DNA of 64,000 nucleotides from an archaeon GW2011_AR20 (GTDB taxonomy: Archaea; Nanobdellota; Nanobdellia; SCGC-AAA011-G17; GW2011-AR20): contig CP010426.1 in assembly GCA_000830315.1 (NCBI GenBank), positions 135,156 through 199,155 of the forward strand, read 5' to 3'. Under the pieces are notes generated by a model, which made no database searches, was not told where the DNA came from, and saw nothing but the letters and a program-made list of their open reading frames with translations. The stretch's first letter is position 1. Each line of letters starts with the position of its first letter. Position numbers and translations under genes: made by a program. Shown here piece after piece: positions 10,529-28,328 of this stretch.

Positions 10529-10630
10529 AAGTGTGGGAGACACACTCAGAAACCCGATTCAATCGCACCGTAACAATATATATTAACGCCATATATTTGC
10601 ATAGTAATATGTAAAAATATTTAAAACTTG
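10529..10630. repeat. Direct repeat A (about 100 bp, about 85% identical to 11651..11750), begins with hairpin GTGTGGGAGACACAC
   Basis: gtgtgggagacacactcagaaacccgattcaatcgcaccgtaac... aligned by eye with copy B. Confidence 0.8.
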
Positions 10631-11602
10631 CTGTCATATTTTATTGTCCACAAAATAGAAACATTTATATATAATGTGGACAATAGTGTTAGTATGGTGT
10701 ATGTCGATAAAATCAAGTCAGGGAAAAAAACTTTTTACTATCTTGGAAAAACTATAAGAATAGGAGAAAATAAGTGGAAGAAAATAAGGATTAAATTAGG
10801 AGAAAAAAAGCCAACAAGAGAAGAAATAGGAGATAAACTAAAAAAGCTTAAGTTAGAGGAATATAAAGTTTACAATGAAGATTATTTAGATGCTGATAAA
10901 CTGGAGGTAATTGATGACTTCAGAGAGGTATACAATAATCATCTTAAACAAATACCTAAAACAATCGCTGAGAAAGAAGAAGCTGATTTTTTAATTAGAT
11001 TTACTTATAATTCTAATGCTATTGAAGGAAATAGATTAACGTTACGTGATACTTATTTAATAATTAAAGAAAAACAAATCCCTTCTGGAGCTCCACCAAA
11101 AGACTATAATGAAGCTATTAATGGGCGAGAAGCGTTTGAATTTATTAAAAAATATAAAGGAAAACTTACGATTGAGTTTATTGAAAGATTAAATGAGATA
11201 TTAACTAAAAATACCGGAGTAATTTATACTGGAAGAGTACGCTTTTTTCCAGTTAAAATTGAGGGGGCCGAACATATACCGCCAGAACCAGAAGAAGTTA
11301 AACCATTATTAAGAAAGATGATTAGATTTTATAATGAGAATAAGAAAAAGATTCATCCATTTATATTAGCTTGTTTGATACACGCACGATTTGTGGAGAT
11401 TCATCCATTTGAAGATGGAAACGGCAGAACTGGAAGAGCATTAATGAATTGGATTTTAATGCAAACAAAATATCCAAAAATTTTTGTTCCAGTAAAACTA
11501 AGACAAAAGTATTATGAAGCTATTGATCTTCACAACCAAAAGAACATTAAGAGTTATTGCCAAAAAATGTTTGAAATTGTGATAGAACAATTTAAATTAT
11601 AA
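10628..11602 (+). CDS. Fic/DOC family protein (AMPylation/phosphocholination-type)
   Basis: 324 aa; canonical Fic motif 'HPFEDGNGRTGRALMNWIL' (HPFx[DE]GNGR). Confidence 0.85.
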   Translation: MLSYFIVHKIETFIYNVDNSVSMVYVDKIKSGKKTFYYLGKTIRIGENKWKKIRIKLGEKKPTREEIGDKLKKLKLEEYKVYNEDYLDADKLEVIDDFREVYNNHLKQIPKTIAEKEEADFLIRFTYNSNAIEGNRLTLRDTYLIIKEKQIPSGAPPKDYNEAINGREAFEFIKKYKGKLTIEFIERLNEILTKNTGVIYTGRVRFFPVKIEGAEHIPPEPEEVKPLLRKMIRFYNENKKKIHPFILACLIHARFVEIHPFEDGNGRTGRALMNWILMQTKYPKIFVPVKLRQKYYEAIDLHNQKNIKSYCQKMFEIVIEQFKL

Positions 11603-11782: not shown

Positions 11783-11914
11783 TTAATGAATCCTAGAAAT
11801 TATTGCTCCAACTATTGCTCCTACGATTGTGCCAGCTATCGCTCCTTCTATTCCATTACTAAACAATCCTATAATAGCACCAATTAGCGCCCCTATCTTA
11901 ATTAAGTCTGGCAT
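11783..11914 (-). CDS. Small glycine-zipper membrane peptide (43 aa)
   Basis: Hand translation: MPDLIKIGALIGAIIGLFSNGIEGAIAGTIVGAIVGAIISRIH*; repeated GxxxG/AxxxG; below the ORF-track size cut-off. Confidence 0.35.
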   Translation of the reverse strand: MPDLIKIGALIGAIIGLFSNGIEGAIAGTIVGAIVGAIISRIH

Positions 11915-12110
11915 TTTTCTCCAATTTTTTAATCCTCATTTCTATGTAGATTATATATAAAAGTATAATTGTTATAGCTACGGCTATTTTTATATAATAA
12001 TTATCGTTAAAAATAAGTTTAGTAATGGATGCAACAGCAAGGATTGGACCCAAAACCCATCCAAGTTTTTTCATAAAACCAACAAAACTTTCTTCTTTCT
12101 TTTTAATCAT
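11898..12110 (-). CDS. Small membrane protein, hypothetical
   Basis: 70 aa, 2 predicted TM helices. Confidence 0.3.
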   Translation of the reverse strand: MIKKKEESFVGFMKKLGWVLGPILAVASITKLIFNDNYYIKIAVAITIILLYIIYIEMRIKKLEKNARLN

Positions 12111-12111
12111 T

Positions 12112-12270
12112 TTAATGTTTTACTCCAACCCATATAAGAAAGATACCAAATAATCCTAAAATAAATTTATAGCTAAAACCAAGATTTAATACCCATGGAG
12201 CAATAATTATTATAACCCCTAATAGAACAGACATTGCCGCTCCACTTATTGTGTTTGTATTGCTAACCAT
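12112..12270 (-). CDS. Small membrane protein (52 aa), SPW-repeat-like
   Basis: Hand translation: MVSNTNTISGAAMSVLLGVIIIIAPWVLNLGFSYKFILGLFGIFLIWVGVKH*. Confidence 0.3.
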   Translation of the reverse strand: MVSNTNTISGAAMSVLLGVIIIIAPWVLNLGFSYKFILGLFGIFLIWVGVKH

Positions 12271-12305
12271 TATTGTTAATGAGATTTTATAATTTAAAAA
12301 TCTTT

Positions 12306-12518
12306 TTAATATTCACTTCTATGAAGTTTTGAGTGTTTTCTTACTGCTTTTTTGAATCTCTTTTTAAGTTTTTTATTAATTCTTTTAAGCATAACTTGTC
12401 TTTTTTTAGTTTCTTTTTTATATTCCTTTGCTAATTCTTTTAATTCTTCTAAAATCTTTTCTTTTTCATTTTCATCTCTTTTCATAATCTCGGAAAAGAG
12501 TTTTTGAGTTTTATCCAT
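12306..12518 (-). CDS. Lys/Glu-rich coiled-coil protein, hypothetical
   Basis: 70 aa, about 40% K/R/E. Confidence 0.3.
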   Translation of the reverse strand: MDKTQKLFSEIMKRDENEKEKILEELKELAKEYKKETKKRQVMLKRINKKLKKRFKKAVRKHSKLHRSEY

Positions 12519-12650: not shown

Positions 12651-13094
12651 CTAACCATAAACATAAAGTAATATTAAATATAAAACCATAAATGCTAATG
12701 GTATGTAAGCCTCTGTAATTGTTGTTTTATAATTTTTGTTAATATGGTAATCCTCTATAGTATAAGGTCTTATTGGCAAATATTCTTCTATATTATGTAT
12801 AACCCTAAATTTAGCAGAATTTAATTTTCTATAACTCCTAATGTTTAGATACCAAGAAACAGATATAATAATTCCAACTAAGGATAATAAAATTAATATC
12901 CTGTCTCTATTCATAACTGAAAAATAACTTACCAAACCAAATATAATGGAGTTTATTGTTAAATAAAAATTATTTGATATCAATCTTCTAGAGCTAACAT
13001 CATCTGCACTCTTTACATATATCTTATATTGCTCCAATAAATGATTTTGAAAATCCTTTTTATACTTTTTATTTATCAAATTTTTTGCTTCCAT
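12651..13094 (-). CDS. Small 3-TM membrane protein (candidate effector), last gene of the three-gene operon
   Basis: 147 aa; about 50-aa soluble N-terminus, two adjacent TM helices (INSIIFGLVSYFSVM / ILILLSLVGIIISVSWYL), about 55-aa loop, C-terminal TM; 2 nt downstream of the TIR-like gene. Confidence 0.4.
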   Translation of the reverse strand: MEAKNLINKKYKKDFQNHLLEQYKIYVKSADDVSSRRLISNNFYLTINSIIFGLVSYFSVMNRDRILILLSLVGIIISVSWYLNIRSYRKLNSAKFRVIHNIEEYLPIRPYTIEDYHINKNYKTTITEAYIPLAFMVLYLILLYVYG

Positions 13095-13096
13095 AT

Positions 13097-13591
13097 TTAA
13101 TCACTATTTAGCTCATTTGAGATTTCATCTATATCCCAATTAATAATTCTGGCTCCATTATCTCTCATTTGTTGAGGAATTCTATGATTCTCATATCTAT
13201 GAACCCTTACACCAATTACTTTTTTTTCTTGCGAATAAGCTTCATTTATCTCCCAGTTAACAGCGTCTCTACTATGTGTTTCAGGTCCTATTAAAACTAT
13301 TACTGTAGACGTCATAGCAATCCTTTCTCTGCATTGGGTCCTCCATTTTTCATCAAATGGCTCATTTACTGCATAATTAATAAAATCTAAATCATATTTA
13401 TCACTTTTTGCTTGGTGGGTCAATAGCTGTTTTGCATATTCATCATCTATATGAAAGCTAATAAATACTTTTTTTCTAGTTTTCTGAATTTCTCCATCCC
13501 CATTATAACTTGAAACTTTTTTATTTATTGCATTTTTAGTTGTTTGACTATAGCTCTGACGGGTTCCTCTTGGACCTCCTCCCATAAACAT
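13097..13591 (-). CDS. TIR-like domain protein (DUF1863 / ThsB-like flavour)
   Basis: 164 aa; 'KKVFISFHIDDEYAKQLL' = TIR box-1-like (VFISY/H), later 'AVNWEINEAYSQ' W-x-x-E motif; low-complexity N-terminus overlaps the upstream gene, so the true start may be later. Confidence 0.5.
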   Translation of the reverse strand: MFMGGGPRGTRQSYSQTTKNAINKKVSSYNGDGEIQKTRKKVFISFHIDDEYAKQLLTHQAKSDKYDLDFINYAVNEPFDEKWRTQCRERIAMTSTVIVLIGPETHSRDAVNWEINEAYSQEKKVIGVRVHRYENHRIPQQMRDNGARIINWDIDEISNELNSD

Positions 13592-14403
13592 ACACCTCCT
13601 TCAAATAATTTTTTCTGTTCATTTAATCTTTGTATGTTGTTAAATATTTCAATGAGATTTTCTTTAACAATTTTAGTGTTGTATTTCCCGGAGTATTTTA
13701 CTTTCTTTGTCCCAACAAATTTTTTTCCATTTAATGCGGTGACAAGATGTGTATTTGTAATGTATGCATCGGCAAATGAAAATTCTAATAAATTATTTTG
13801 CGAACCCATTCCATAAAGAAGCAAATATCTCGCATACGGTCTTATTTTAAATGCAAAATTTTTAGCTTTGTTGATCATATTTCTATCTCCAGATCTAAAA
13901 AAATCCCGGGTATGAAAAATAAAATCTTTTATTCCAAACATTTTCAATATTTTTACATGCTTCTCTATTATCCATTCATTGCATCCCTTAACGTGACCAA
14001 TTGGAAAACTAAATGGACATCGCTCTATTAATTCCTTAGTTTGGAACAACGATTTTTTAATTTCTTCGATAGATACGATTTGCTCTCCCTCATAAGTTTC
14101 ACAATCTGGCGTTGTATAAAAATTTGGTTTTAAGGTATTTATAATGAAAGCATAATCTGAGGGGGTCAGTTTAGAAAGCATATCATCTTTTACAATCAAC
14201 GATAGAATTATCATTCCATGATAGTTTAAATAATTGTGAATCCCACCAACATTCCTGATCTCATAAAAAACACTCTTGAGTTCTAAAGTTATATGCGAAA
14301 TTATATCTAACAATCTCACTACTACAAACTTTGTTGGTATGCTTTGAGCAACACCAATCATTTTCTTTTTGTTTACCTCTGTAATGGGTATAATTTCTAC
14401 CAT
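13525..14403 (-). CDS. Hypothetical 292-aa protein; weak resemblance to the C-terminal half of the tRNA-guanine transglycosylase (TGT/DpdA-like) TIM barrel
   Basis: 'RYLLLYGMGSQNNLLEFSFADAYITNTHLVTALNGKKFVG' vs TGT 'HLMGVGKPDDI...IDMFDCVMPTRSGRNGQAFT' (by-eye alignment only; no DSGGFQ or Zn motif seen). Confidence 0.3.
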   Translation of the reverse strand: MVEIIPITEVNKKKMIGVAQSIPTKFVVVRLLDIISHITLELKSVFYEIRNVGGIHNYLNYHGMIILSLIVKDDMLSKLTPSDYAFIINTLKPNFYTTPDCETYEGEQIVSIEEIKKSLFQTKELIERCPFSFPIGHVKGCNEWIIEKHVKILKMFGIKDFIFHTRDFFRSGDRNMINKAKNFAFKIRPYARYLLLYGMGSQNNLLEFSFADAYITNTHLVTALNGKKFVGTKKVKYSGKYNTKIVKENLIEIFNNIQRLNEQKKLFEGGVCLWEEVQEEPVRAIVKQLKMQ

Positions 14404-14570
14404 TTTTAATAGCTCTATCCTCTTGACCTCTTTTTTGCATGGTATTAGAGGGTTGAACTTATTTATATAGTTTTCTATTGACTTCTTTACGTAATAATAT
14501 AAGATTTAGACTAAAATAGAAATATTTATATAACTTATTATGCTTCTTTTTTGAAGAAGGAATCAATTAA

Positions 14571-15155
14571 ATGAAAGTATTAATATCTACAATTTGGAAA
14601 GGGTCTGCTGTTATACAGGCTATAAAACTATTTTCTCCTAATAAAGTCTTTTTTATTGCAGATGAACCTGTTGAAGATATAAGAAATAATTCTATTAATA
14701 TGATCAAAGAAATATTCCCTAATTTAGAATATAAAACTGTTCCAACTAAGATTTATGATATAGTAGGAATTGCAAAGTCTGTAATGGATATCATAGAATC
14801 AGAAACAGGAAATGAGATAATAGTTCATATTTCAGAAGGTAGAAAAACTATGAGTTTAGGTTTATTATTTGGTGCTTATGTTAAAAGAGAATTAGTTAGT
14901 TCTGCATATTATATTACTGAAGAAACAAATACACCAATTCAATTACCTCTCGTAAAACTTAAATTATCAAAACAAAAAAAAGGATTATTACAAAAAATTG
15001 ATGAGAACATTACCTCAATATCTGAACTTGCAAAGAAACTAAAGATCAAAGCTCCAACCGTATATGTTCATATGAAAGAATTAAGAGATGACGGCTTTTT
15101 GAATAAGGAAAATAAGCTCACAGAGATTGGGAGGATTATTCTTTTAAATAATTAA
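14571..15155 (+). CDS. Csa3-like regulator (Rossmann/CARF-like N-domain + C-terminal wHTH)
   Basis: 194 aa; N-terminus 'MKVLISTIWKGSAVIQAIKL' resembles the Csa3 start (MKxxxxTLGF); C-terminal 'ISELAKKLKIKAPTVYVHMKELRDDGFL' wHTH. Confidence 0.4.
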   Translation: MKVLISTIWKGSAVIQAIKLFSPNKVFFIADEPVEDIRNNSINMIKEIFPNLEYKTVPTKIYDIVGIAKSVMDIIESETGNEIIVHISEGRKTMSLGLLFGAYVKRELVSSAYYITEETNTPIQLPLVKLKLSKQKKGLLQKIDENITSISELAKKLKIKAPTVYVHMKELRDDGFLNKENKLTEIGRIILLNN

Positions 15156-15156
15156 A

Positions 15157-16314
15157 ATGACTACTTACTCTCATTCAAAACTTGGCACATTTCAACAATG
15201 TAAGTATAAATATAAACTTCAATATATTGATAAAATAAAAAGTGATTTAGAAAGTATTGAAATCTTTATGGGAAAACGTGTCCATGAGGCTTTAGAGAAA
15301 TTATATAATGATTTAAAATTCCAAAAATTAAATACTAAAGAAGAATTACTACAATTTTTTGAAAAAATCTGGGATGAGAATTGGCATGATAAGGTTTTCA
15401 TTGTTAAAGATGAATATACAGCTAAAAATTATAAAGAAATGAGTAAAAAGTTTATAGCAGATTATTATGATCATTATAAACCATTTAATCATAGAACGGT
15501 TATAGCTATAGAAACACAAGATAGAATGAATCTGTCTGAAGGATATCAATATCATATAAGGATAGACCATTTAGCTTGTGATAAAGAAGGAAATTATTAT
15601 GTTTGTGATTATAAAACAAATAATTTATTAAAAGCACAGGAAGAATTAGATGAAGACCATCAGTTAGCAATGTATTCTTTATGGGTCAAGCAAAAATATC
15701 CTGATGCTAAGTCTGTTAAATTAGTGTGGTATTTCTTAGCTTTTGATAAAGAAATGATTTCTGAAAGAAATGATGAACAGTTAAAAGAATTAAAAAAACA
15801 AATTGAAAAGTTAATCAAGGAAATAGAAGCTTGTAATAATTTCCCAACAAATGTTAGTTCTTTATGTGATTATTGTCAATATAAACCAATATGTCCTGCT
15901 TGGAAACATAAATTTGAAGTTGAAGAAAGTAAAAAAGAATTTTCTGAAGATTATGGTGGAAAGTTAGTGGATGAGTTTTCTAAGTTACAAGAAACTAAGA
16001 AACATGCTGAAGAAAAAATAGAAGAAATAAAAGAAGATCTTATCAAATTTGCTAAACAAAAAGAAATTGATGTGGTTTTTGGAACTGATAAGAGATGTTC
16101 TGTAAAAGAATATGATAAAATTATTTTTCCGGATGATAAGAAAGAGGAATTGTTGAAATTAATTAAGGATAAAGGAATTTATGATGAATTTTCATCTCTT
16201 AATTATTTTAAATTAAGCCCAAAGGTCCTTAAAAAAGAAGTTGATGAAGATATAATAAGTCTTACTGATAGGGAAAAAGCCTATAGATTAAGCTTATCCA
16301 AAAGGAGAGATTAA
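15157..16314 (+). CDS. Cas4-like PD-(D/E)xK nuclease with Fe-S cysteines (RecB-family), C-terminal charged extension
   Basis: 385 aa; N-terminal Cys 'FQQC', motif II 'IRIDHL', motif III 'VCDYKT' (D-x-K), 'QLAMYSLW' Q-x-x-x-Y, C-terminal 'CDYCQYKPIC' (C-x2-C-x5-C). Confidence 0.65.
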   Translation: MTTYSHSKLGTFQQCKYKYKLQYIDKIKSDLESIEIFMGKRVHEALEKLYNDLKFQKLNTKEELLQFFEKIWDENWHDKVFIVKDEYTAKNYKEMSKKFIADYYDHYKPFNHRTVIAIETQDRMNLSEGYQYHIRIDHLACDKEGNYYVCDYKTNNLLKAQEELDEDHQLAMYSLWVKQKYPDAKSVKLVWYFLAFDKEMISERNDEQLKELKKQIEKLIKEIEACNNFPTNVSSLCDYCQYKPICPAWKHKFEVEESKKEFSEDYGGKLVDEFSKLQETKKHAEEKIEEIKEDLIKFAKQKEIDVVFGTDKRCSVKEYDKIIFPDDKKEELLKLIKDKGIYDEFSSLNYFKLSPKVLKKEVDEDIISLTDREKAYRLSLSKRRD

Positions 16315-16370: not shown

Positions 16371-17630
16371 ATGAAAACAAATCCCAAACAAAGAACAATC
16401 GGTTCAATATATCACAGAATGAAGGATAAAATAAATTTATCTGACAAAAGGTTTCAGAGGGGTTCTGTTTGGACGAGAGAGCAAGAACAATTTTTGATTG
16501 ATACATTAATTAAAAGTTTAGATATTCCAAAATTATATTTTTGGGATGTAAAAAACGAAGGTGTTTATGACTATTCTGTTGTGGATGGCCAACAGAGACT
16601 AACAACAATTTTTAGATTTTTAAACAATGAATTAGAATTGAATTCAGAATTCACACCAGAATTCGCAAATAAAACTTATGAAAAACTGCCAGAAGATTTG
16701 AAGGATGAAATATATAATTATGAGCTGACCATCGTTATAATAGAAGATGCAGATGAGGAAGCGATTCAGGACTTATTTTTACGACTCAACAACGGAACAA
16801 CATTGAAGTCCCAAGAGAAAAGAATGAATATCGGAGGAAATCTTTCAAAATATATTGTTAATATGACAAACCATAATATTTTTTCTAAAGTGACATTTAA
16901 AAATAAACACAGAGATTACGAGCAAATTTTAGCACAATGTATTAAACTAGAGCTAGAAGGAAAAACAACCAACACCCAAGGGAAATATCTGGATTTGATG
17001 TACAAAGAGGAAAAGGACTTTGATGTTAATGGAACCGTCGCCAAGAAATTTAAAAAAGTTTTAGATTATATGGGTGAAATATTCTCCGAGGAGAATAAAG
17101 TGCCGGAATTAAAACGATTTAATCTAATATCTTTATATTTGATGCTTTCTCAAATGATTGACAAATTTGTGATTAAAGACAAAAAAGATTTGTTTAAAAA
17201 ATTCCTGATTGGTTTTTGGAATGATTTAACAAATTATCGAGACCAAGAAAAAATATCTGATGACAAAAGAAACCTCGATTTTGATGATTTTATACAATTT
17301 ATCAGTAGCAGGACAGATAGTTTGGAATCGATAGATGGGAGACACAAAATTTTACTAAAATATTTTATGCTTAAAAATCCAAATTTAGAAATCTTTGATA
17401 ATAACAGAAATTTTACAGAAGAACAGCGACTTGTTATTTATCGAAGGGATAAAGAGATATGTTGGCATTGTGGTAAACACGTCGATTGGGTAGATTTTGA
17501 AGCAGATCATAGACCTAAACCATATAGCAAGGGTGGAAAAACGACTGTTGGAAACGGCACTTGTGCCCATCAAAGTTGTAATTTGAAAGCAAGTAATAAA
17601 GAAGAATTACTACCTGGATGGTTAAAATAA
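16371..17630 (+). CDS. DUF262 (ParB-like NTPase/nuclease, DGQQR) + C-terminal HNH-like domain; GmrSD/BrxU-like type IV restriction-type enzyme
   Basis: 419 aa; 'VVDGQQRLTTIFRFL' DUF262 signature; C-terminal 'CWHCGKHVDWVDFEADHRPKPYSKGGKTTVGNGTCAHQSCNLKASN' HNH/DUF1524-like. Confidence 0.7.
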   Translation: MKTNPKQRTIGSIYHRMKDKINLSDKRFQRGSVWTREQEQFLIDTLIKSLDIPKLYFWDVKNEGVYDYSVVDGQQRLTTIFRFLNNELELNSEFTPEFANKTYEKLPEDLKDEIYNYELTIVIIEDADEEAIQDLFLRLNNGTTLKSQEKRMNIGGNLSKYIVNMTNHNIFSKVTFKNKHRDYEQILAQCIKLELEGKTTNTQGKYLDLMYKEEKDFDVNGTVAKKFKKVLDYMGEIFSEENKVPELKRFNLISLYLMLSQMIDKFVIKDKKDLFKKFLIGFWNDLTNYRDQEKISDDKRNLDFDDFIQFISSRTDSLESIDGRHKILLKYFMLKNPNLEIFDNNRNFTEEQRLVIYRRDKEICWHCGKHVDWVDFEADHRPKPYSKGGKTTVGNGTCAHQSCNLKASNKEELLPGWLK

Positions 17631-17634
17631 TAAA

Positions 17635-19122
17635 ATGGTCGAAAAGATTACACTTTCAGAGTTAGAATCATACTTATGGGCTGCAGCAAATATACTTAGG
17701 GGTCCAATAGATAATGCAGACTTTAAAGCATATATATTTCCAATGTTATTTTTTAAAAGAATATCTGATGTTTATGATGAAGAATATCAATCTGCTCTAA
17801 AAAAATTTGATGGTGATGAAGAAGCAGCATCTTATCCTGAAAACTTTTCTTTTATTATTTCAGATAACGCTCATTGGAAAGATGTTAGAGCAAATACTAA
17901 AAATGTCGGTCAAGCAATTCAATATGCTTTTAGAACTATAGAAACTGCAAACCCGGACAGATTATATGGTATTTTTGGTGATGTAAATTGGACAAACAAA
18001 GAAAGATTGTCTGACGAGTTATTGATTAATTTGATTGAAAATTTCTCTACAAAGAATCTTTCAAAGGAAAATGTTGAACCAGATATATTGGGACAAGCCT
18101 ATGAATATCTTATTAAGAAATTTGCTGACCTCACTAATAAAACCGCCGGAGAGTTCTATACTCCTAGAGCGGTAGTTCATTTAATGGGTAATATTCTAAA
18201 ACCCAAAGAAAAAGACACAATCTATGACCCTGCTTGTGGTTCTGGTGGCATGCTTTTAGAAGCATTCAACTTTGTAAAAAATAAAGGGGGTGACGTTAGA
18301 ACACTTAAACTATATGGTCAAGAAAAGAATTTAACAACTTCTGCTATTGCCAGAATAAACTTGTTTTTACATGGGGTTGAAGACTTTCAAATAATTAGAG
18401 GAGATACACTAAGAAATCCAGCTTTCCATGAAGGGGATTTATTGTCTAAATTTGATGTTGTAATTGCTAATCCACCATTCTCATTAAAAAATTGGGGTGC
18501 CGTTGAATGGTCTCATGATCAGTTTAGTAGAAATATTGCTGGAACTCCCACAGACAATAGTGGTGACTTTGCTTGGGTCCAACATATGGTTTGTTCTATG
18601 GCACATCCAAATGGAAGAATGGGAATAGTTTTGCCACATGGTGCTTTATTTAGAGGGGGGGTTGAAGGCAAAATAAGAAAAGAACTTTTAACAAAAGATT
18701 TACTTGAAACAGTTATTGGTCTTGGACCAAATCTTTTCTATGGAACAGGAATTAGTGCCTGTATATTAATATTCAAACAAAAGAAAGATGCTAAAAAGCA
18801 AAATAAGATTCAGTTTATTGATGGTTCTGCATTATTTACTAAAGGGAGAAATCAAAATTTCTTTCGGGAAGAACATGCAAAACAAATTCTTGAATGGTAC
18901 AATAAATATGAAGATATAGAAAATATAAGTAAAATTGTTTCACTATCAGAAATAGAAGAGAATGAATTTAATTTAAATATTTCAAGGTATGTTGTAAAAC
19001 TGGATGAAGAAGATAAAATAACATTAAAGGAAGCATATACTGAAATGCTCAATACTCAAAAAGATTTTGAAAAATCGCAAGAAAAAATGATTAAAACCTT
19101 AACAAAATACAAGGTAATATGA
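17635..19122 (+). CDS. hsdM: Type I R-M N6-adenine DNA methyltransferase subunit (HsdM), copy 1
   Basis: 495 aa; 'DPACGSGGMLLEA' motif I, 'VIANPPFS' motif IV, HsdM N-terminal domain 'YLWAAANILRG'. Confidence 0.9.
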   Translation: MVEKITLSELESYLWAAANILRGPIDNADFKAYIFPMLFFKRISDVYDEEYQSALKKFDGDEEAASYPENFSFIISDNAHWKDVRANTKNVGQAIQYAFRTIETANPDRLYGIFGDVNWTNKERLSDELLINLIENFSTKNLSKENVEPDILGQAYEYLIKKFADLTNKTAGEFYTPRAVVHLMGNILKPKEKDTIYDPACGSGGMLLEAFNFVKNKGGDVRTLKLYGQEKNLTTSAIARINLFLHGVEDFQIIRGDTLRNPAFHEGDLLSKFDVVIANPPFSLKNWGAVEWSHDQFSRNIAGTPTDNSGDFAWVQHMVCSMAHPNGRMGIVLPHGALFRGGVEGKIRKELLTKDLLETVIGLGPNLFYGTGISACILIFKQKKDAKKQNKIQFIDGSALFTKGRNQNFFREEHAKQILEWYNKYEDIENISKIVSLSEIEENEFNLNISRYVVKLDEEDKITLKEAYTEMLNTQKDFEKSQEKMIKTLTKYKVI

Positions 19123-19123
19123 A

Positions 19124-20617
19124 ATGACAAAAACAATATCAGCCCAAGAACTAGAATCATATCTTTGGCAAGCTGCGAATATACTTAGAGGAGTAATTGA
19201 TGCAAGCGAATACAAAAGTATAATTTTTCCATTGATGTTTTTTAAGAGAATTTCTGATGCATATGATGAAGAGTATGAAATAGCTCTTGCTGAATCTAAA
19301 GGAGACAAAGAATATGCTTCATATCCAGAACAACACGAATTTCAAGTTCCTAAAGGATACCATTGGAATGATGTAAGACAAATTACAAAAGAAGTTGGAA
19401 GAGCTATTAAAAATGCAATGGAGAATCTAGAGAAAGCTAATCCAGATAAGTTAATGGGTATTTTTGGAGATAACAATTGGACAAATAAGGAAAGACTTTC
19501 TGACTCAATATTAATTAATTTGATTGAACACTTTTCGAGTTTAAATCTCTCTACTAAAAATGTGCCTCAAGATGAATTTGGAACTGCTTATGAATTTTTA
19601 ATAAAGAAATTTGCAGATGATAGTGGACACACTGCTGCTGAATTTTACACCAATAGGACTGTAGTCAGAATAATGGCACTAATTATGAATCCAAAACCGG
19701 GAGAATCTATTTACGACCCAACTTGCGGTTCTGGAGGTATGTTGCTTAATTCCGCATTGCTTGTTAAGGAAAAGGGTCAAGAGTATCGTGGCTTAAAATT
19801 ATATGGGCAAGAAATTAATCTAATAACTTCAGGTATTGCGAGAATGAACATGTTCATACATGGATTTAATGAATTTCATATTGTTAGAGGAGACACATTA
19901 AAACATCCCGCCTTTGTGGAGAATGACAAACTAAAGAAGTTTAATATTGTTATAGCTAATCCCCCATATTCAATCAGCAAATGGAATAAAGAGCTATGGA
20001 AACACGACCCTTGGGGGAGAAATAAATATGGTGTTCCTCCTGCAGGTAATGCCGATTATGCTTTTTTTCAACATTGTATATGTTCTATGGATGAAAAAAA
20101 TGGGAGATGTGGAATATTATATCCTAACGGAATACTTGAAAGAGATGCAGAAAAATCTATGCGACAAAAGATAGTTGAAGATGATTTGATTGAGTGTATT
20201 GTTGGCTTGGGAAAAGATTTATTTTATAATTCATCAATGGAATCATGCTTAGTATTCTGTAAAACTAATAAAGAAAAGAGTAAAAAAGGAAAAATATTAT
20301 TTATTGATGCTAAAGCAGAGATTACAAGAAAACAAACACAGAGTTTTTTAGAACCACATCATATTAAGAAGATACATGATGCTTACAAAGGTTTTGAAGA
20401 CATTAAAGGTTTTGCAAAAGTTGTTGACTTGGATGAAGTAAGAAAGAATGACTTTAATCTTAATCTAAGACTATATGTTGAAGAAAAAAGATATGTTGAT
20501 AATTCATTATTGGAAACTCCACTAAAGACTTACATTAAGGAATGGAAGGATAGTATAAAAGAACTTGAAAAATCAACAAAAGAAATGAACGAAGCTATTA
20601 AGGAGGTATTGAAATGA
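19124..20617 (+). CDS. hsdM: Type I R-M methyltransferase subunit (HsdM), copy 2 (tandem paralog, about 55% identical by eye)
   Basis: 497 aa; 'DPTCGSGGMLLNS', 'VIANPPYS', 'YLWQAANILRG'. Confidence 0.9.
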   Translation: MTKTISAQELESYLWQAANILRGVIDASEYKSIIFPLMFFKRISDAYDEEYEIALAESKGDKEYASYPEQHEFQVPKGYHWNDVRQITKEVGRAIKNAMENLEKANPDKLMGIFGDNNWTNKERLSDSILINLIEHFSSLNLSTKNVPQDEFGTAYEFLIKKFADDSGHTAAEFYTNRTVVRIMALIMNPKPGESIYDPTCGSGGMLLNSALLVKEKGQEYRGLKLYGQEINLITSGIARMNMFIHGFNEFHIVRGDTLKHPAFVENDKLKKFNIVIANPPYSISKWNKELWKHDPWGRNKYGVPPAGNADYAFFQHCICSMDEKNGRCGILYPNGILERDAEKSMRQKIVEDDLIECIVGLGKDLFYNSSMESCLVFCKTNKEKSKKGKILFIDAKAEITRKQTQSFLEPHHIKKIHDAYKGFEDIKGFAKVVDLDEVRKNDFNLNLRLYVEEKRYVDNSLLETPLKTYIKEWKDSIKELEKSTKEMNEAIKEVLK

Positions 20618-21762
20618 AAATTCCTAATAGCTGGAAAAAAGTTCAGTTTGGAGATGTCGTAAGTAAAATAAACGATAAAGTTTCAAACAGAGAAGAATGG
20701 ATTTTTAATAGATATATTGGTGGAGAACATTTTGATGAAGGCGAAATTAGAGTTACAAAATCAGCGCCTATTGAAGGAAATGAAGAAGTTATTGGTTCAG
20801 CATTTCACATGAGATTTAAGCCAGGACAAGTTCTTTATGTTACAAGAAATCCAAGATTACGTAAAGGTGGAATGGTAAATTTTGAAGGAGTTTGTTCTAA
20901 TGTCAGCTTTGTTATGGAAGCGAATGAAACAAAATTATTACAATCATTATTACCTTTTGTAATTCAAACAGAAGATTTTGTAAAACATACTTGCAACAAT
21001 GCACATGGTTCAACAAATCCATTCCTTAATTGGAAAGATATAGCAAATTACGAGTTTTTACTTCCGCCTTTAGTTGAACAGAAGAAGATTAATGAAGTGT
21101 TATGGGGTGTTGAGAACAGCATAATTAAATTAGAAATATATCTTCAAAAATTAAGAAGTTTTCAAGATAAAATAATAACTAATTTGTTAAAACCAAAAAA
21201 AGGCGGTAAATTAACTAAATTTGGAGAAATTATCAAACTTTCAAAGGAGAAGTCTCAAGCACCATATGGGAATTTAAAATATCTAGGATTAGAGCATATT
21301 GATTCAGGTGTAAGTATTTGTAATAAATTTTCAGATGCAAATAATGTTAAAAGCGTTACTTCCGTATTCAAAAAAGGAGACATATTATATGGTAAGCTTA
21401 GACCATATCTTGATAAAGCAGTTATTGCATCGTTCGATGGAATCTGCACAACTGAAATTTTAGTTATTAATGCAAATGATAAAACAACAAATGATTTTCT
21501 AATGTTACATATAAGAACAAAAGACTTCATTGATTATAATACTCGATTAGGATTTGGAACTAAAATGCCTAGAACTTCCGTAGAAATAATTTCTAATTAT
21601 GAAATATATCTTCCTTCAATAAGTGAACAGAAAATTCTTTTGAATACAACCAATAAATTAAATAAGCTGATTGCAGATGTAAATAAAAATAAAGCATCAC
21701 TAAAAAATCTTCGTAATAAACTCTCCAACGAACTTTTAAAAGGCGAGTTGAGGTTAGATTAA
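20614..21762 (+). CDS. hsdS: Type I R-M specificity subunit (HsdS), two target-recognition domains
   Basis: 382 aa; duplicated TRD architecture with conserved central/terminal helices (LPPLVEQKKI / LPSISEQKIL); 4-nt overlaps with flanking genes. Confidence 0.8.
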   Translation: MKIPNSWKKVQFGDVVSKINDKVSNREEWIFNRYIGGEHFDEGEIRVTKSAPIEGNEEVIGSAFHMRFKPGQVLYVTRNPRLRKGGMVNFEGVCSNVSFVMEANETKLLQSLLPFVIQTEDFVKHTCNNAHGSTNPFLNWKDIANYEFLLPPLVEQKKINEVLWGVENSIIKLEIYLQKLRSFQDKIITNLLKPKKGGKLTKFGEIIKLSKEKSQAPYGNLKYLGLEHIDSGVSICNKFSDANNVKSVTSVFKKGDILYGKLRPYLDKAVIASFDGICTTEILVINANDKTTNDFLMLHIRTKDFIDYNTRLGFGTKMPRTSVEIISNYEIYLPSISEQKILLNTTNKLNKLIADVNKNKASLKNLRNKLSNELLKGELRLD

Positions 21763-21763
21763 A

Positions 21764-24664
21764 ATGGTATTTAATGAACAAAACACAGTTGAACATTATG
21801 TAAGAGATTTACTTGTTAAAATGGGTTGGAAATATATTCCAAAAGAGCATTTGCCAAGGCAAGATGCCGATGTTTTAGTCGAAGAGCATTTAAAACAAGC
21901 ATTAATAAAATTGAATCCTGAAATAGCTGAAAAGCCTGAAAGAGCTGAAGAAGTATTATACAAGTTGAGAGCAATTCTTATTTCAGTTAGAGGAACAGGC
22001 ATTGTTAAAACAAATGAAGAGTTTACAAAATGGTTGAGAAATGAAAAAACAATGCCATTTGGAGAAAATAGTGAACATACTACTGTAAGATTAATAGATT
22101 TTGATAATATTGCTAATAATAATTTTGTTGTAACAACACAATATTCATTCACATCAGGTCAGAACATAAGACCAGATTTAGTTTTATTAATAAATGGTAT
22201 TCCATTAATTATAGGGGAGGCTAAAACTCCAGTAAGACCTGCAATATCTTGGGTTGATGGAGCATTGCAATTAGAAGGCTATCAAAATTATACTCCCGCA
22301 TTATTTGTTCCAAATATGTTTTGTTTTGCAACAGAGGGTAAAACTTACAGAGTAGGTTCAATTAAATTACCATTACAAAATTGGCAACCATGGAAGAAAA
22401 CTGACGATACTGCTTTTGAAGATTTAGAGGAATTAAGAAATTCCGTTAGTAGAATGTTAAATCCAGAAGTTATCATAGATATTTTACAAAATTTTACATT
22501 ATATAGCACAACTCAGGGTGGCCAAAAAATAAAAATAATGGTAAGATACCAACAATATGAAGGAGCAAAACAGATTGTTAAAAGAGTTATAGATGGTAAA
22601 ATAAAAAAGGGTTTGATTTGGCAATTCCAAGGCTCGGGAAAGTCTTTTTTAATGGTTTATGCAGCGATGCAATTAAGACAAGAAGAAAAACTCAAAAGTC
22701 CAACAGTTATTGTAGTCGTTGATAGGGTTGATTTAAACTCTCAAATTACTGCCACATTTAATGCATCTAATGTACCAAATATGGTCATTGCTGATTCTAG
22801 AGAAGATTTACAAAAATTCCTAAAACAAGATACTAGAAAAATAATAATCACAACAATTCATAAATTTGCAGAAGCTGAAGGGGTACTAAATGAAAGAAGT
22901 AATATTATTGTGTTAGTTGATGAAGCTCACAGAACACAAGAAGGCAATCTTGGTAACAAAATGCGAGAAGCCTTGCCAAACGCATTTTTATTTGGTCTTA
23001 CAGGTACTCCAATAAATAAAAGAGATAGAAATACTTTTTGGGCATTTGGAGCAATAGAAGATAAAAACGGTTACATGAATCGTTATTCTTTTGAACAGTC
23101 CCTAAGAGATGGGGCAACACTTCCAATCTATTTTGAACCAAGATTAGTAGAATTAAGAATAAATAAAGAACAGATTGACAAAGAATTTGAATGGTTAGTA
23201 AAAGAAGAACAATTAGATTATGGAGAAAAAACCGAACTTTCAAAAGAGGCTGCTAAATTTGGCATTATTGTTAAAACAAAAGATAGAATACAAAAAATTT
23301 GCACAGATATCGCAAAACATTTCAGAGAAGACATTGAACCGAATAATTTCAAAGGGCAAGTTGTTGTATTTGATAGAGAATCTTGTCATTTATACAAACA
23401 AGAGCTTGATAAACATCTACGACCAGAAGAAACAGCAGTTGTAATGACTGTCAAACAAAAGGGAGAGGAGGAATGGAGAAAATTATATGGTTTATCTGAT
23501 GATGATCAAGAAAAATTGTTAGACAGATTTAGAGATCCAAAAGACCCTCTTAAATTATTAATAGTTACTTCAAAACTTCTCACAGGGTTTGATGCACCAA
23601 TCAATCAAGTAATGTATTTGGATAAACCAATGAAAGATCATACTCTATTACAAGCTATTTGTAGGGTTAATCGACCTTATCCAAATAAAAACCACGGGCT
23701 TATTGTAGATTATCTTGGCATATTTGATAATGTTGGCAGAGCTCTTGACTTTGATATGGCTGAAATGAGAAATGTAATATTAAATATTGCAAAACTAAGA
23801 GAAGAATTACCAAAAGCTATGGATAAATGTTTATCTCACTTTAAAAATATTGATAGAAACATTGAAGAATATGAAGGATTACTTGCAGCCCAAGATTGTT
23901 TGCCTTCAAATGAAAAAAGAGATAAATTTGCTGGAGATTATTCATATTTAACAAAACATTGGGAAGCGGTGTCTCCTGATCCAATATTGAAAAAATTTAC
24001 GAAAGATTACAAGTGGCTTACACAAGTATATCAATCCATTCAACCGCCAAGCGGTAATGGGAGATTGATATGGCATGCATTAGGAGCAAAAACTCTTGAA
24101 TTAATCCATAGAAATATTGAAGTTCAGACAATCAGAGATGATCTAGATGTATTGGTAATGGATGCTAATATTTTAGAAAAAATTTCAGAGAGTAAAGCTA
24201 AAGAAAAAGCTAAGGAAATTGAAATGAAAATTGTTTGGCGACTTCATAAGCACGCTAATGATCCAAGATTTCAAGAACTTGGAAAAAGATTAGAAGAATT
24301 AAAAGAAAGACATTATCAAAATGCCATTAGCAGCATTGAATTTCTTAAAGGTTTACTAGAAATTGCAAAAGCAACCGTAAAATTAGAAAGAGAAACAGAA
24401 GCAGAACCTGTTGACGGAACAAAAGAAGCACTTACTCAATTGTTTTTGGAATGTAAAGTCGATAAAACCCCAATAATTTTAGAACAAATAATAAAAGATA
24501 TTGACCAAGTTGTAAAAGTAACTAGATTTGATGGATGGCAATGGACTAAAACAGGAGAAAGAGATATACAACAAGCACTTAGAAGAACCTTACTAAAATA
24601 TAAATTACATAAAGAACAAGATTTATTTGATAAGGCATTCGGGTATATTAGGGAGCATTATTAG
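21764..24664 (+). CDS. hsdR: Type I R-M restriction subunit (HsdR), nuclease + SF2 helicase
   Basis: 966 aa; N-terminal PD-(D/E)xK 'DLVLLINGIPLIIGEAKTP', Walker A 'QGSGKS', 'VLVDEAHRTQ' DEAH box. Confidence 0.9.
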   Translation: MVFNEQNTVEHYVRDLLVKMGWKYIPKEHLPRQDADVLVEEHLKQALIKLNPEIAEKPERAEEVLYKLRAILISVRGTGIVKTNEEFTKWLRNEKTMPFGENSEHTTVRLIDFDNIANNNFVVTTQYSFTSGQNIRPDLVLLINGIPLIIGEAKTPVRPAISWVDGALQLEGYQNYTPALFVPNMFCFATEGKTYRVGSIKLPLQNWQPWKKTDDTAFEDLEELRNSVSRMLNPEVIIDILQNFTLYSTTQGGQKIKIMVRYQQYEGAKQIVKRVIDGKIKKGLIWQFQGSGKSFLMVYAAMQLRQEEKLKSPTVIVVVDRVDLNSQITATFNASNVPNMVIADSREDLQKFLKQDTRKIIITTIHKFAEAEGVLNERSNIIVLVDEAHRTQEGNLGNKMREALPNAFLFGLTGTPINKRDRNTFWAFGAIEDKNGYMNRYSFEQSLRDGATLPIYFEPRLVELRINKEQIDKEFEWLVKEEQLDYGEKTELSKEAAKFGIIVKTKDRIQKICTDIAKHFREDIEPNNFKGQVVVFDRESCHLYKQELDKHLRPEETAVVMTVKQKGEEEWRKLYGLSDDDQEKLLDRFRDPKDPLKLLIVTSKLLTGFDAPINQVMYLDKPMKDHTLLQAICRVNRPYPNKNHGLIVDYLGIFDNVGRALDFDMAEMRNVILNIAKLREELPKAMDKCLSHFKNIDRNIEEYEGLLAAQDCLPSNEKRDKFAGDYSYLTKHWEAVSPDPILKKFTKDYKWLTQVYQSIQPPSGNGRLIWHALGAKTLELIHRNIEVQTIRDDLDVLVMDANILEKISESKAKEKAKEIEMKIVWRLHKHANDPRFQELGKRLEELKERHYQNAISSIEFLKGLLEIAKATVKLERETEAEPVDGTKEALTQLFLECKVDKTPIILEQIIKDIDQVVKVTRFDGWQWTKTGERDIQQALRRTLLKYKLHKEQDLFDKAFGYIREHY

Positions 24665-27113: not shown

Positions 27114-28328
27114 TTATTTATCAATCTCTTTAATCATTTTTGCTAACAAATCAAGTATCTCTGGTTTCTTTTCAATTAAATTGTTCATCTGCTCATCTAT
27201 CTTTATCCTTTTATTTTCTAAACTTAGAGCAACTCTTAAATTTAATGGCTTGCCACAGTTGTTACAATAATCATTAGTTGGTGCATTAACCGCTTTACAA
27301 ATACATACTACTGATTGCAATTGACTTTCTTTAACCTTTAATTCTTGTTTGCCAAAACCTTTTCTATAACTATTATCTGCTTCCTTCGGATTGAGGAATG
27401 TATAACTTGAAACAGTTTGTCTTTTAGTCCAACCATATCTCATCATTAACAATGAATCACTCATAAAGCTGCTTGAAGATGTTGCACTAAATCTTCTGAA
27501 AGCATGGGGATTAACAGCTTTTTTTAAATTTATTTTTTTAGCTATTTTATGTAACATCATATTTACTGAGCTATGACTGAGCTGTCCATAATGATTTCTT
27601 TTATCTAAACTAATAAACAAATGAGCTTTTGGATCATCTTTAAGTGGATGATGATTTAGCCATGTACTTAAATATGGAACTGAAGGAATTAATAGAACTC
27701 TTCTCCCTCCAGTCTTACCAGTTTCAACCATTAGTTGGATTAAACCATCATCTGTATAAGAAATATTAGATATATGTACGTTAACTAATTCACCTACTCT
27801 AACTCCAGAATCAGCTAAGATAGAAATCATAGCTTTATTTCTGACAGAACTTGTAACATTTAACATAGCTAATATATCTTCTTCTGTTAAAATTTCGCTA
27901 GGAGCTCTTTTCTTAGTTTCTCTTCTTATTGTTATATCCTGGACTTCCTTAGGATATTTTTTGTCATTACCTTTAAGCCATTTGTAGAATAATCTTAATA
28001 TAGCTAGATCTTCTCCTTTGCTATTAGTACTTAAATTAGAATTATTAATCTGTATTACTAAAGTTTCTATATCTTTTTTATTTACCTTATCTAAATCCTT
28101 GTTTAATTTTAAAACCATTAACCTTAGCCTATTAAAGTACTTTAGTATCCTTACATCACTTAAACCTTTAAACTTCTTGTATTCTGTAAATTCAATAATA
28201 AGCTCTTTATTTTTCTTGGAGATTGCTTTATTCTCTGTTAATAATACTAATTCTCTATTTGTTTTAGAATGTACTTTATACAAGATTTCAGCTGCATCTA
28301 TTACTATTTCATTTTCCATAAACTTCAT
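27114..28328 (-). CDS. int: Tyrosine recombinase/integrase (full length, adjacent to tRNA)
   Basis: 404 aa; catalytic region 'RVGELVNVHISNI' (box I Arg), 'HAFRRFSATS' (H-x-x-R), 'MRYGW...Y' ; C-terminal Zn ribbon 'CICK...CNNCGK'. Confidence 0.85.
   Translation of the reverse strand: MKFMENEIVIDAAEILYKVHSKTNRELVLLTENKAISKKNKELIIEFTEYKKFKGLSDVRILKYFNRLRLMVLKLNKDLDKVNKKDIETLVIQINNSNLSTNSKGEDLAILRLFYKWLKGNDKKYPKEVQDITIRRETKKRAPSEILTEEDILAMLNVTSSVRNKAMISILADSGVRVGELVNVHISNISYTDDGLIQLMVETGKTGGRRVLLIPSVPYLSTWLNHHPLKDDPKAHLFISLDKRNHYGQLSHSSVNMMLHKIAKKINLKKAVNPHAFRRFSATSSSSFMSDSLLMMRYGWTKRQTVSSYTFLNPKEADNSYRKGFGKQELKVKESQLQSVVCICKAVNAPTNDYCNNCGKPLNLRVALSLENKRIKIDEQMNNLIEKKPEILDLLAKMIKEIDK

Follow-up and report, generated by a model that had tools for sequence, protein, structure and literature searches.

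An archaeal module of a TGT-fold protein, a Gly-tailed ThsB-type TIR protein and an 8xMP membrane protein as a probable Cap9-less variant of Thoeris

The window, by which the whole analyzed stretch of 64,000 nucleotides from the archaeon GW2011_AR20 is meant (contig CP010426.1, positions 135,156 to 199,155), carries at positions 12651-14403 a compact module of three minus-strand genes that encode a TGT-fold protein resembling Cap10 (below, the TGT-like protein), a TIR protein of the ThsB type and a small membrane protein of the 8xMP family. The tight packing of these genes, which a preliminary description of the locus had read from the sequence alone, was reproduced by the open reading frame (ORF) call: the TIR and 8xMP genes are separated by 2 nt, and the TGT-like and TIR genes overlap by 67 nt when the TIR gene is opened at its first ATG (13591; ORF 13097-13591, minus strand, 164 aa) and by 61 nt when it is opened at the second (13585). 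The parts of the module and the genes divergent from it are the following:

13525-14403, minus strand: gene for the TGT-fold, Cap10-like accessory protein, 292 aa by the ORF call
13097-13585, minus strand: ThsB-type TIR gene, 162 aa counted from the second ATG
12651-13094, minus strand: gene for the small membrane protein of the 8xMP family, 147 aa, assigned by its PF24838 match
13472-13585, minus strand: N-terminal tail of the TIR protein, MGGGPRGTRQSY... followed by a variable linker, the proposed dock for the TGT-like protein
13593-13599, minus strand: Shine-Dalgarno-like GGAGGTG of the TIR gene, read from the sequence, inside the 3' end of the TGT-like gene
14404-14570, no strand: AT-rich divergent intergenic region of 167 nt, delimited by the gene coordinates, where promoters and an operator are presumed to lie
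14571-15155, plus strand: gene for a CARF-like and winged helix-turn-helix (wHTH) regulator (Csa3-like), divergent, often present as the module's fourth gene
15157-16314, plus strand: gene for a PD-(D/E)XK (Cas4-like) nuclease, PDDEXK_1 match, in the same operon as the regulator

For comparison, 47 loci encoding relatives of the TGT-like protein (284.5 kb in total) were assembled from metagenome-assembled genomes (MAGs) of Woesearchaeota, Pacearchaeota and Bathyarchaeia, a further MAG that carries the label 'bacterium', and numerous metagenomes. The order TGT-like, TIR, 8xMP on one strand was found in about 27 loci beyond the window, wherever the contig permits, and the nearest relatives come from DPANN archaea. 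The recurrence of the ordered trio in about 27 independent loci far exceeds chance, and the earlier suggestion that the three genes work as a unit is borne out by this co-conservation. Searches of PHROGs and NCBIfam were uninformative.

The TIR protein matches the Pfam family ThsB_TIR (PF08937) at 3.3e-17, above the cutoff, and the PADLOC ThsB model at 1.2e-15, in agreement with the TIR-like assignment first made by eye; of the hallmarks cited at that time the KKVFISFH box stands, and the other conserved motif is W-E (VNWEI) and not exactly W-x-x-E. The DNA at the start of the gene reads GAAGGAGGTGTatgtttATGGGAGGAGGT; from its GGAGGTG site (13599-13593) the distance is 3 nt to the first ATG and 9 nt to the second. 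Judged from the sequence, the second ATG (13585) is most likely the true start, with a product of 162 aa beginning MGGGPRG; this product and the 61-nt overlap are preferred because every TIR orthologue opens with a start codon followed by Gly-Gly-Gly. In an alignment of 33 non-identical orthologues (residues numbered from MGGG), the first residue is M, V or L in all, the next three are G-G-G (in one, G-G-S), and a variable linker of about 35 residues leads to the strand FISFH, the start codons of the orthologues being ATG (30), GTG (4) and TTG (2). At least 90% conservation was observed for M1, G2, G3, G4, F41-H45, W111 and E112, the last of which we take, from what is known of the family, to be the catalytic TIR glutamate. 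From its N-terminus on, the protein consists of the MGGG tail, the ~35-aa linker and the TIR domain, in which the W-E motif is conserved. The GGAGG site of the TIR gene also encodes the conserved 'EGG' of an 'F-E-G-G' sequence (13593-13605) near the C-terminus of the TGT-like protein, and the conservation of this sequence may reflect the translation signal of the overlapping gene; the Bathyarchaeia clade has a short gap in place of the overlap, and the C-terminal tail with 'F-E-G-G' is missing there.

The invariant MGGG tail, which was absent from the preliminary description, ties the module to the logic of Cap10 and type IV of the anti-phage signaling systems based on cyclic oligonucleotides (CBASS), and it is the TGT-like gene and not the TIR that it follows from locus to locus. 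An ORF opening with a start codon and GG(G/S) begins between -91 and +16 nt from the TGT-like stop codon in 42 of the 43 loci whose sequence continues for at least 100 nt past this gene, and elsewhere only 4 others among 2476 ORFs open in this manner. Such a start holds alike for partners that are TIR proteins, CD-NTases or unknown proteins. Where TIR genes stand in tandem (L046), the first has the tail and the second is without it; the TIR proteins that adjoin 8xMP in loci devoid of a TGT-like gene (L051, L052) open directly at the first TIR strand with no tail, which is likewise missing from the DUF4062 protein neighboring 8xMP in L048. In locus L021 a TGT-like protein 72-76% identical to the TIR-associated ones is followed by a SMODS CD-NTase and then by a Cap17-like effector; the first 26 residues of this CD-NTase (MGGGTRGKRHRYAGGASTGPSLDAY) share 54-69% identity with TIR tails, and the remainder about 13%. 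More distant TGT-like genes (e.g. in L055 and L057) precede CD-NTases starting with MGEG or MGVG and then transmembrane (TM) proteins, and in L044, L045 and L047 the TGT-like gene is followed by a protein that starts with MGGG and is neither a TIR protein nor a CD-NTase. These last partners (L044 4134-6613, L045 111-1593, L047 1-1391) have no Pfam match, and in one type among them (195-199 aa) a long stretch rich in Gly occurs together with hydrophobic segments. The distant operon of L057 (159-2470; TGT-like, CD-NTase and TM genes) adjoins an AAA_15/AAA_21 ATPase and RloB, an OLD/PARIS-like pair, and a defense context of the wider TGT-like family is supported by this adjacency.

For the TGT-like protein itself, the AlphaFold 2 model has a pLDDT of 87.6 and its top Foldseek matches are all TGT structures (E about 1e-10). 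A profile of the broad family matched the TGT of Z. mobilis with 93% probability (E 3e-7) and ArcTGT at E 0.0099 with a locally high posterior, so that the TGT/DpdA likeness noticed earlier is upheld, with the difference that it covers the whole barrel and not the C-terminal half to which it had been limited. Against PDB sequences, neither the single 292-aa sequence nor a narrow family profile found a TGT match, ArcTGT being reached by the broad profile alone. The protein has no Pfam match of its own, and 18 of the 47 relatives touch Pfam TGT while 24 of the 47 touch the PADLOC TGT model. The family is small, with 78 homologues of about 290 aa each and, out of 1.84 billion representatives, 222 clusters at E <= 1e-3, and the protein lies nearer to the archaeal/DpdA branch than to Cap10. 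It ends after the TIM barrel: the zinc-binding CxCxxC...H subdomain is absent and no Cys motif was found, and the C-terminal ~27 residues (266-292), encoded within the overlap with the TIR gene, are disordered. Within the pocket D73, D100, Y104 and K139 are invariant. The conserved D100 is the base-binding aspartate (its counterparts are D156 in the Z. mobilis TGT and D130 in ArcTGT), and the conserved K139 sits at the position of TGT Q203 and Cap10 K154. D73 is invariant in the family and D212 nearly so (it is lost in distant members); in the remote profile alignment both fall near the nucleophile and general-acid positions but out of register. Judged from the remote alignments, the TGT-like protein may be a non-catalytic receptor.

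Some distant relatives deserve a separate description. P0207 (L053 4001-5083; also in L054) is a TGT-like protein of 360 aa with a Cys-rich N-terminus and a C-terminal CxCxxC, and it is encoded among housekeeping genes, namely those of ribosomal proteins S15/S24e/S27, Kae1/TsaD, a Bud32-like kinase, Ham1, Spt4, Rpb7 and Nop; it is possibly a housekeeping paralogue of TGT, uncharacterized as yet, from which the defense family may have evolved. As P0207 also matches the PADLOC 'TGT' model, matches to this model were rejected as a sign of specific kinship with Cap10. P0215 (L058 1670-3523), and likewise P0204, fuses a TGT-like domain to a calcineurin-like metallophosphoesterase and has a Cys-rich N-terminus, in a context that is not defense-like; a phmmer search of the PDB with P0215, aimed at the Cap10 sequence, gave no match.

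The 147-aa product of the third gene is a full-length member of the Pfam family 8xMP (PF24838, 'octameric membrane protein family'), matched at 1.2e-32 with 113.1 bits against a cutoff of 30 bits (residues 20-145, profile positions 1-133 of 136), and at E <= 1 no other Pfam family matched, DUF2270 and SLATT included. Its model (pLDDT 89) has helices at 15-60, 64-103, 110-118 and 123-146, that is, a long helical hairpin and a C-terminal helix, and by hydropathy the TM segments at 64-86 and 124-147 are strong and that near 41-60 is weaker. No significant match to 8xMP was found in the PDB by sequence, profile or fold. Genes of 8xMP proteins also stand beside TGT-less partners, which are TIR proteins in L051 and L052 and the DUF4062 protein in L048. 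Conversely, the place of 8xMP after the TIR gene is taken in L032 and L046 by a caspase-like C14 protease, and in L021 a Cap17-like protein is found; caspase-like C14 proteases form the type IV class of Thoeris effectors. The last gene, already recognized as coding for a small membrane protein of a possible effector type, behaves accordingly as an exchangeable part, and 8xMP is predicted to be a signal-activated, exchangeable effector. Variations in gene content include three tandem TIR genes before the caspase-like protease in L046 (414-2753), two TIR genes before 8xMP in L029 (4028-5410), and a TIR gene, a 70-aa coiled-coil ORF and the same protease as in L046 in L032 (6807-8531). In L048 (4001-7203) the gene for the 865-aa DUF4062 protein follows that for 8xMP and a Sipho_Gp157-like gene is close by; a further module built on 8xMP may be present here, carried by a mobile element.

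The regulator encoded divergently from the module matches HFX_2341_N at 2.4e-7, CARF_Card1 at 3.5e-5 and HTH_5 at 8.8e-6. Its cluster lies divergently upstream of the TGT-like gene in 18 loci, and a related protein with HFX_2341_N and a winged helix occupies this position in 2 further loci; in the Bathyarchaeia clade the regulator is missing and the TGT-like protein is without the disordered C-terminal tail. A scan of the intergenic region 14404-14570 for repeats revealed only weak inverted repeats and palindromes. The Cas4-like nuclease matches PDDEXK_1 at 1.6e-31, and its cluster was identified in 7 loci (L007, L009, L010, L027, L032, L033, L039), in 4 of which, as in the window, the gene lies directly behind that of the regulator; it may serve the module as an accessory or be a neighbor independent of it.

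The setting of the module among defense genes, as described earlier, was confirmed, with the regulator and nuclease genes on one side and the following genes placed around them:

10628-11602: Fic gene
16371-17630: GmrSD_N+HNH gene
17635-24664: type I restriction-modification (R-M) locus
27114-28328: integrase

Together with a RadC gene, which is also among these neighbors, they are consistent with a defense island on an integrated element. The R-M locus begins with two tandem genes for HsdM-type N6-methylases (17635-20617; 495 and 497 aa), followed by HsdS and HsdR. Right downstream of the 8xMP gene lie three small minus-strand ORFs (11898-12518), one for a Lys/Glu-rich protein of 70 aa and two for hydrophobic peptides (52 and 70 aa), none of which matches a family or was seen among the conserved neighbors.

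Published work on type IV CBASS offers a frame for these observations. There Cap9, a QueC-like ATP-dependent ligase, attaches 7-carboxy-7-deazaguanine to the CD-NTase at Gly2 (the N-terminus of the CdnD enzymes reads M(G/S)G(G/S)GG), and Cap10, a TGT-fold protein without the zinc site, holds the deazaguanine-modified (NDG) N-terminus in its base pocket; Cap9 and residues D73 and D248 of Cap10 are all essential (Wassarman et al. 2025, 10.1101/2025.04.06.647259). We consider it probable, at roughly 0.6, that the archaeal module is an abortive-infection system of the Thoeris type, with TIR signaling, in which the TGT-fold protein holds the Gly-rich tail of the TIR protein and gates its activation and 8xMP damages the membrane. 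The ThsB-like TIR protein would serve as sensor and signal generator. Removal of the initiator methionine would leave its Gly-Gly-Gly terminus on a flexible tail of ~35 residues, and the tail would dock where the TGT-fold protein once had its purine pocket (D73, D100, Y104, K139); this docking may hold or prime the TIR protein as Cap10 does with the CD-NTase N-terminus. Upon infection the TIR protein would be released or activated and would make an ADP-ribose-derived signal from NAD+; oligomeric 8xMP would bind the signal, permeabilize the membrane and stop the infected cell, and transcription would be controlled by the divergent CARF-wHTH protein. We infer the binding of tail and pocket, the nature of the signal, the disruption of the membrane, the defense phenotype and the 7-deazaguanine status of the tail.

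Several results weigh against this scenario. No Cap9/QueC-like gene, as judged by the PP-loop S.G.DS or CxxCxxCxD motifs, was identified in the 47 loci or in the 64-kb window, the motif searches having returned spurious matches only, and no QueC match occurs among the annotated neighbors. In the remote profile alignment with ArcTGT (E 0.0099) Ile215 stands opposite the nucleophile D249, the counterpart of Cap10 D248 and TGT D280, and Ser68 stands opposite D95, and the DSGG motif falls in a gap of the alignment with the Z. mobilis TGT; transfer chemistry of the Cap10 type is doubtful because these positions are unmatched. Literature on 8xMP, PF24838 and the octameric membrane protein family yielded no characterized member. 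A tentative version of the proposal, which we hold with much less confidence than its general outline, is that the TGT-fold protein is a pseudo-enzyme that clamps the bare Gly-Gly-Gly in its old purine pocket, with two invariant aspartates binding the alpha-amine, and that it forms a Cap9-independent cassette moved between TIR proteins and CD-NTases. The clamped tail might be released by a viral cue, for example when the pocket is contested by free (deaza)purine bases.

The missing ligase could instead act in trans, either as a Cap9/QueC-family enzyme encoded elsewhere in the genome or as the housekeeping QueC of the archaeosine pathway, tagging Gly2 of the TIR protein so that the TGT-like protein binds the NDG base and possibly transfers it as Cap10 does. 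The MGGG tail fits the published NDG acceptor motif, D100 and K139 are conserved at the positions of TGT D156 and of Cap10 K154 or TGT Q203, and most archaea make preQ0 for archaeosine. In every described type IV system, however, the operon encodes Cap9, which is missing from 47 of 47 loci here; no aspartate aligns with the nucleophile position, and genomes of DPANN archaea are often poor in biosynthetic pathways. In addition, the substrate of canonical QueC is ammonia and not a protein N-terminus (10.1101/2025.04.06.647259), and modification in trans appears unlikely on balance. The preliminary description had offered a further alternative, a DpdA-like module for base exchange or modification of nucleic acids, in which the TIR protein would be a nucleosidase or a partner resembling 2-deoxyribosyltransferases. 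The TGT-fold likeness that prompted it stands, but the zinc subdomain is missing, the aligned nucleophile and general-acid positions are both without aspartate, and linked genes for DpdB, QueC/D/E or FolE were not found, neither 7-deazaguanine synthesis genes nor DpdB-type partners being present among the recurrent neighbor clusters. As a CD-NTase can stand in for the TIR partner and the downstream genes are of cell-killing effector types (8xMP, caspase, Cap17-like), base exchange is very improbable and the least credible of the readings considered.

It is also conceivable that the TGT-like and TIR genes form a toxin-antitoxin-like pair that works with no second messenger, the TIR protein being an NAD+-depleting toxin, the TGT-like protein its antitoxin or chaperone, and 8xMP independent or holin-like. 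Many prokaryotic TIR proteins are NADase effectors, and the tight translational coupling and overlap of the two genes are typical of toxin-antitoxin pairs; nevertheless the TIR protein belongs to the ThsB signaling type. A signaling relationship between TIR protein and effector is further indicated because 8xMP recurs beside unrelated TIR proteins in the absence of a TGT-like gene and is swapped for known signal-activated effectors (caspase-like, Cap17-like). A toxin-antitoxin arrangement has, in our estimate, a small chance of being correct, smaller than modification in trans.

The module resembles type IV CBASS in that a zinc-less TGT-fold protein is encoded beside a signaling enzyme with a Met-Gly-Gly-Gly N-terminal extension and a cell-killing effector lies downstream, and the archaeal TGT-like family also partners CD-NTases (L021, L055, L057). 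It differs in that Cap9 is not encoded at the archaeal loci and the nucleophile aspartate is apparently missing from the TGT-like protein. In type IV CBASS, tRNA-modification enzymes were repurposed for tagging an immune enzyme with a nucleobase; the archaeal family retains the TGT-like partner and the Gly-rich tail with no linked QueC-like ligase and apparently with no transglycosylase nucleophile. As ligase and nucleophile are missing and both TIR proteins and CD-NTases are served, the family is a natural minimal version in which binding or gating may be asked about separately from base transfer.

With respect to the TGT superfamily (bacterial TGT, ArcTGT, DpdA and QTRT2), the archaeal protein shares the TIM barrel, the GG(I/L)H motif, the base-binding aspartate and the G-x-G strand, but it is devoid of the zinc subdomain and the C-terminal domains, and the DSGG motif appears to be missing. 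The aligned nucleophile position holds an isoleucine, a likeness to non-catalytic paralogues such as QTRT2.

The closest published arrangement is found in bacterial Thoeris operons with cap9, cap10 and cap11, which were noted together with docking of the TIR protein to Cap9/10 supported by AlphaFold 3 (Yirmiya et al. 2025 preprint, 10.64898/2025.12.03.692087, Fig. 6G/S10B). In both cases a ThsB-type TIR protein and an effector accompany a Cap10-like gene, and the TIR protein is predicted to dock via its N-terminus; a claim that the combination of an unknown enzyme with a TIR protein matches no known design would therefore be overstated. The operons described there are bacterial, include Cap9 (and Cap11) and are known from noting and modeling, whereas Cap11, like Cap9, is not present at the archaeal loci, and the 8xMP effector and the CARF-wHTH regulator, both part of the archaeal module, were not described in them. 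Among effectors, the same study reported 3-TM proteins (DUF2270; ThsF, type V), SLATT proteins (ThsH, type VII) and an unverified '3TM' class (10.64898/2025.12.03.692087). Types V and VII share with the archaeal module a small multi-TM and probably ring-forming oligomeric effector directly after the ThsB TIR gene, although the archaeal effector is an 8xMP protein, which may or may not correspond to the '3TM' class of that preprint. The module is not categorically new, because the logic of type IV CBASS and of the cap9-10-11 Thoeris operons has already been published; it adds to them an archaeal Thoeris-like system with an uncharacterized effector family (8xMP) and a CARF-type regulator. It is a real defense module with putative chemistry, probably a Cap9-less, Cap10-like-gated variant of Thoeris with an 8xMP effector.

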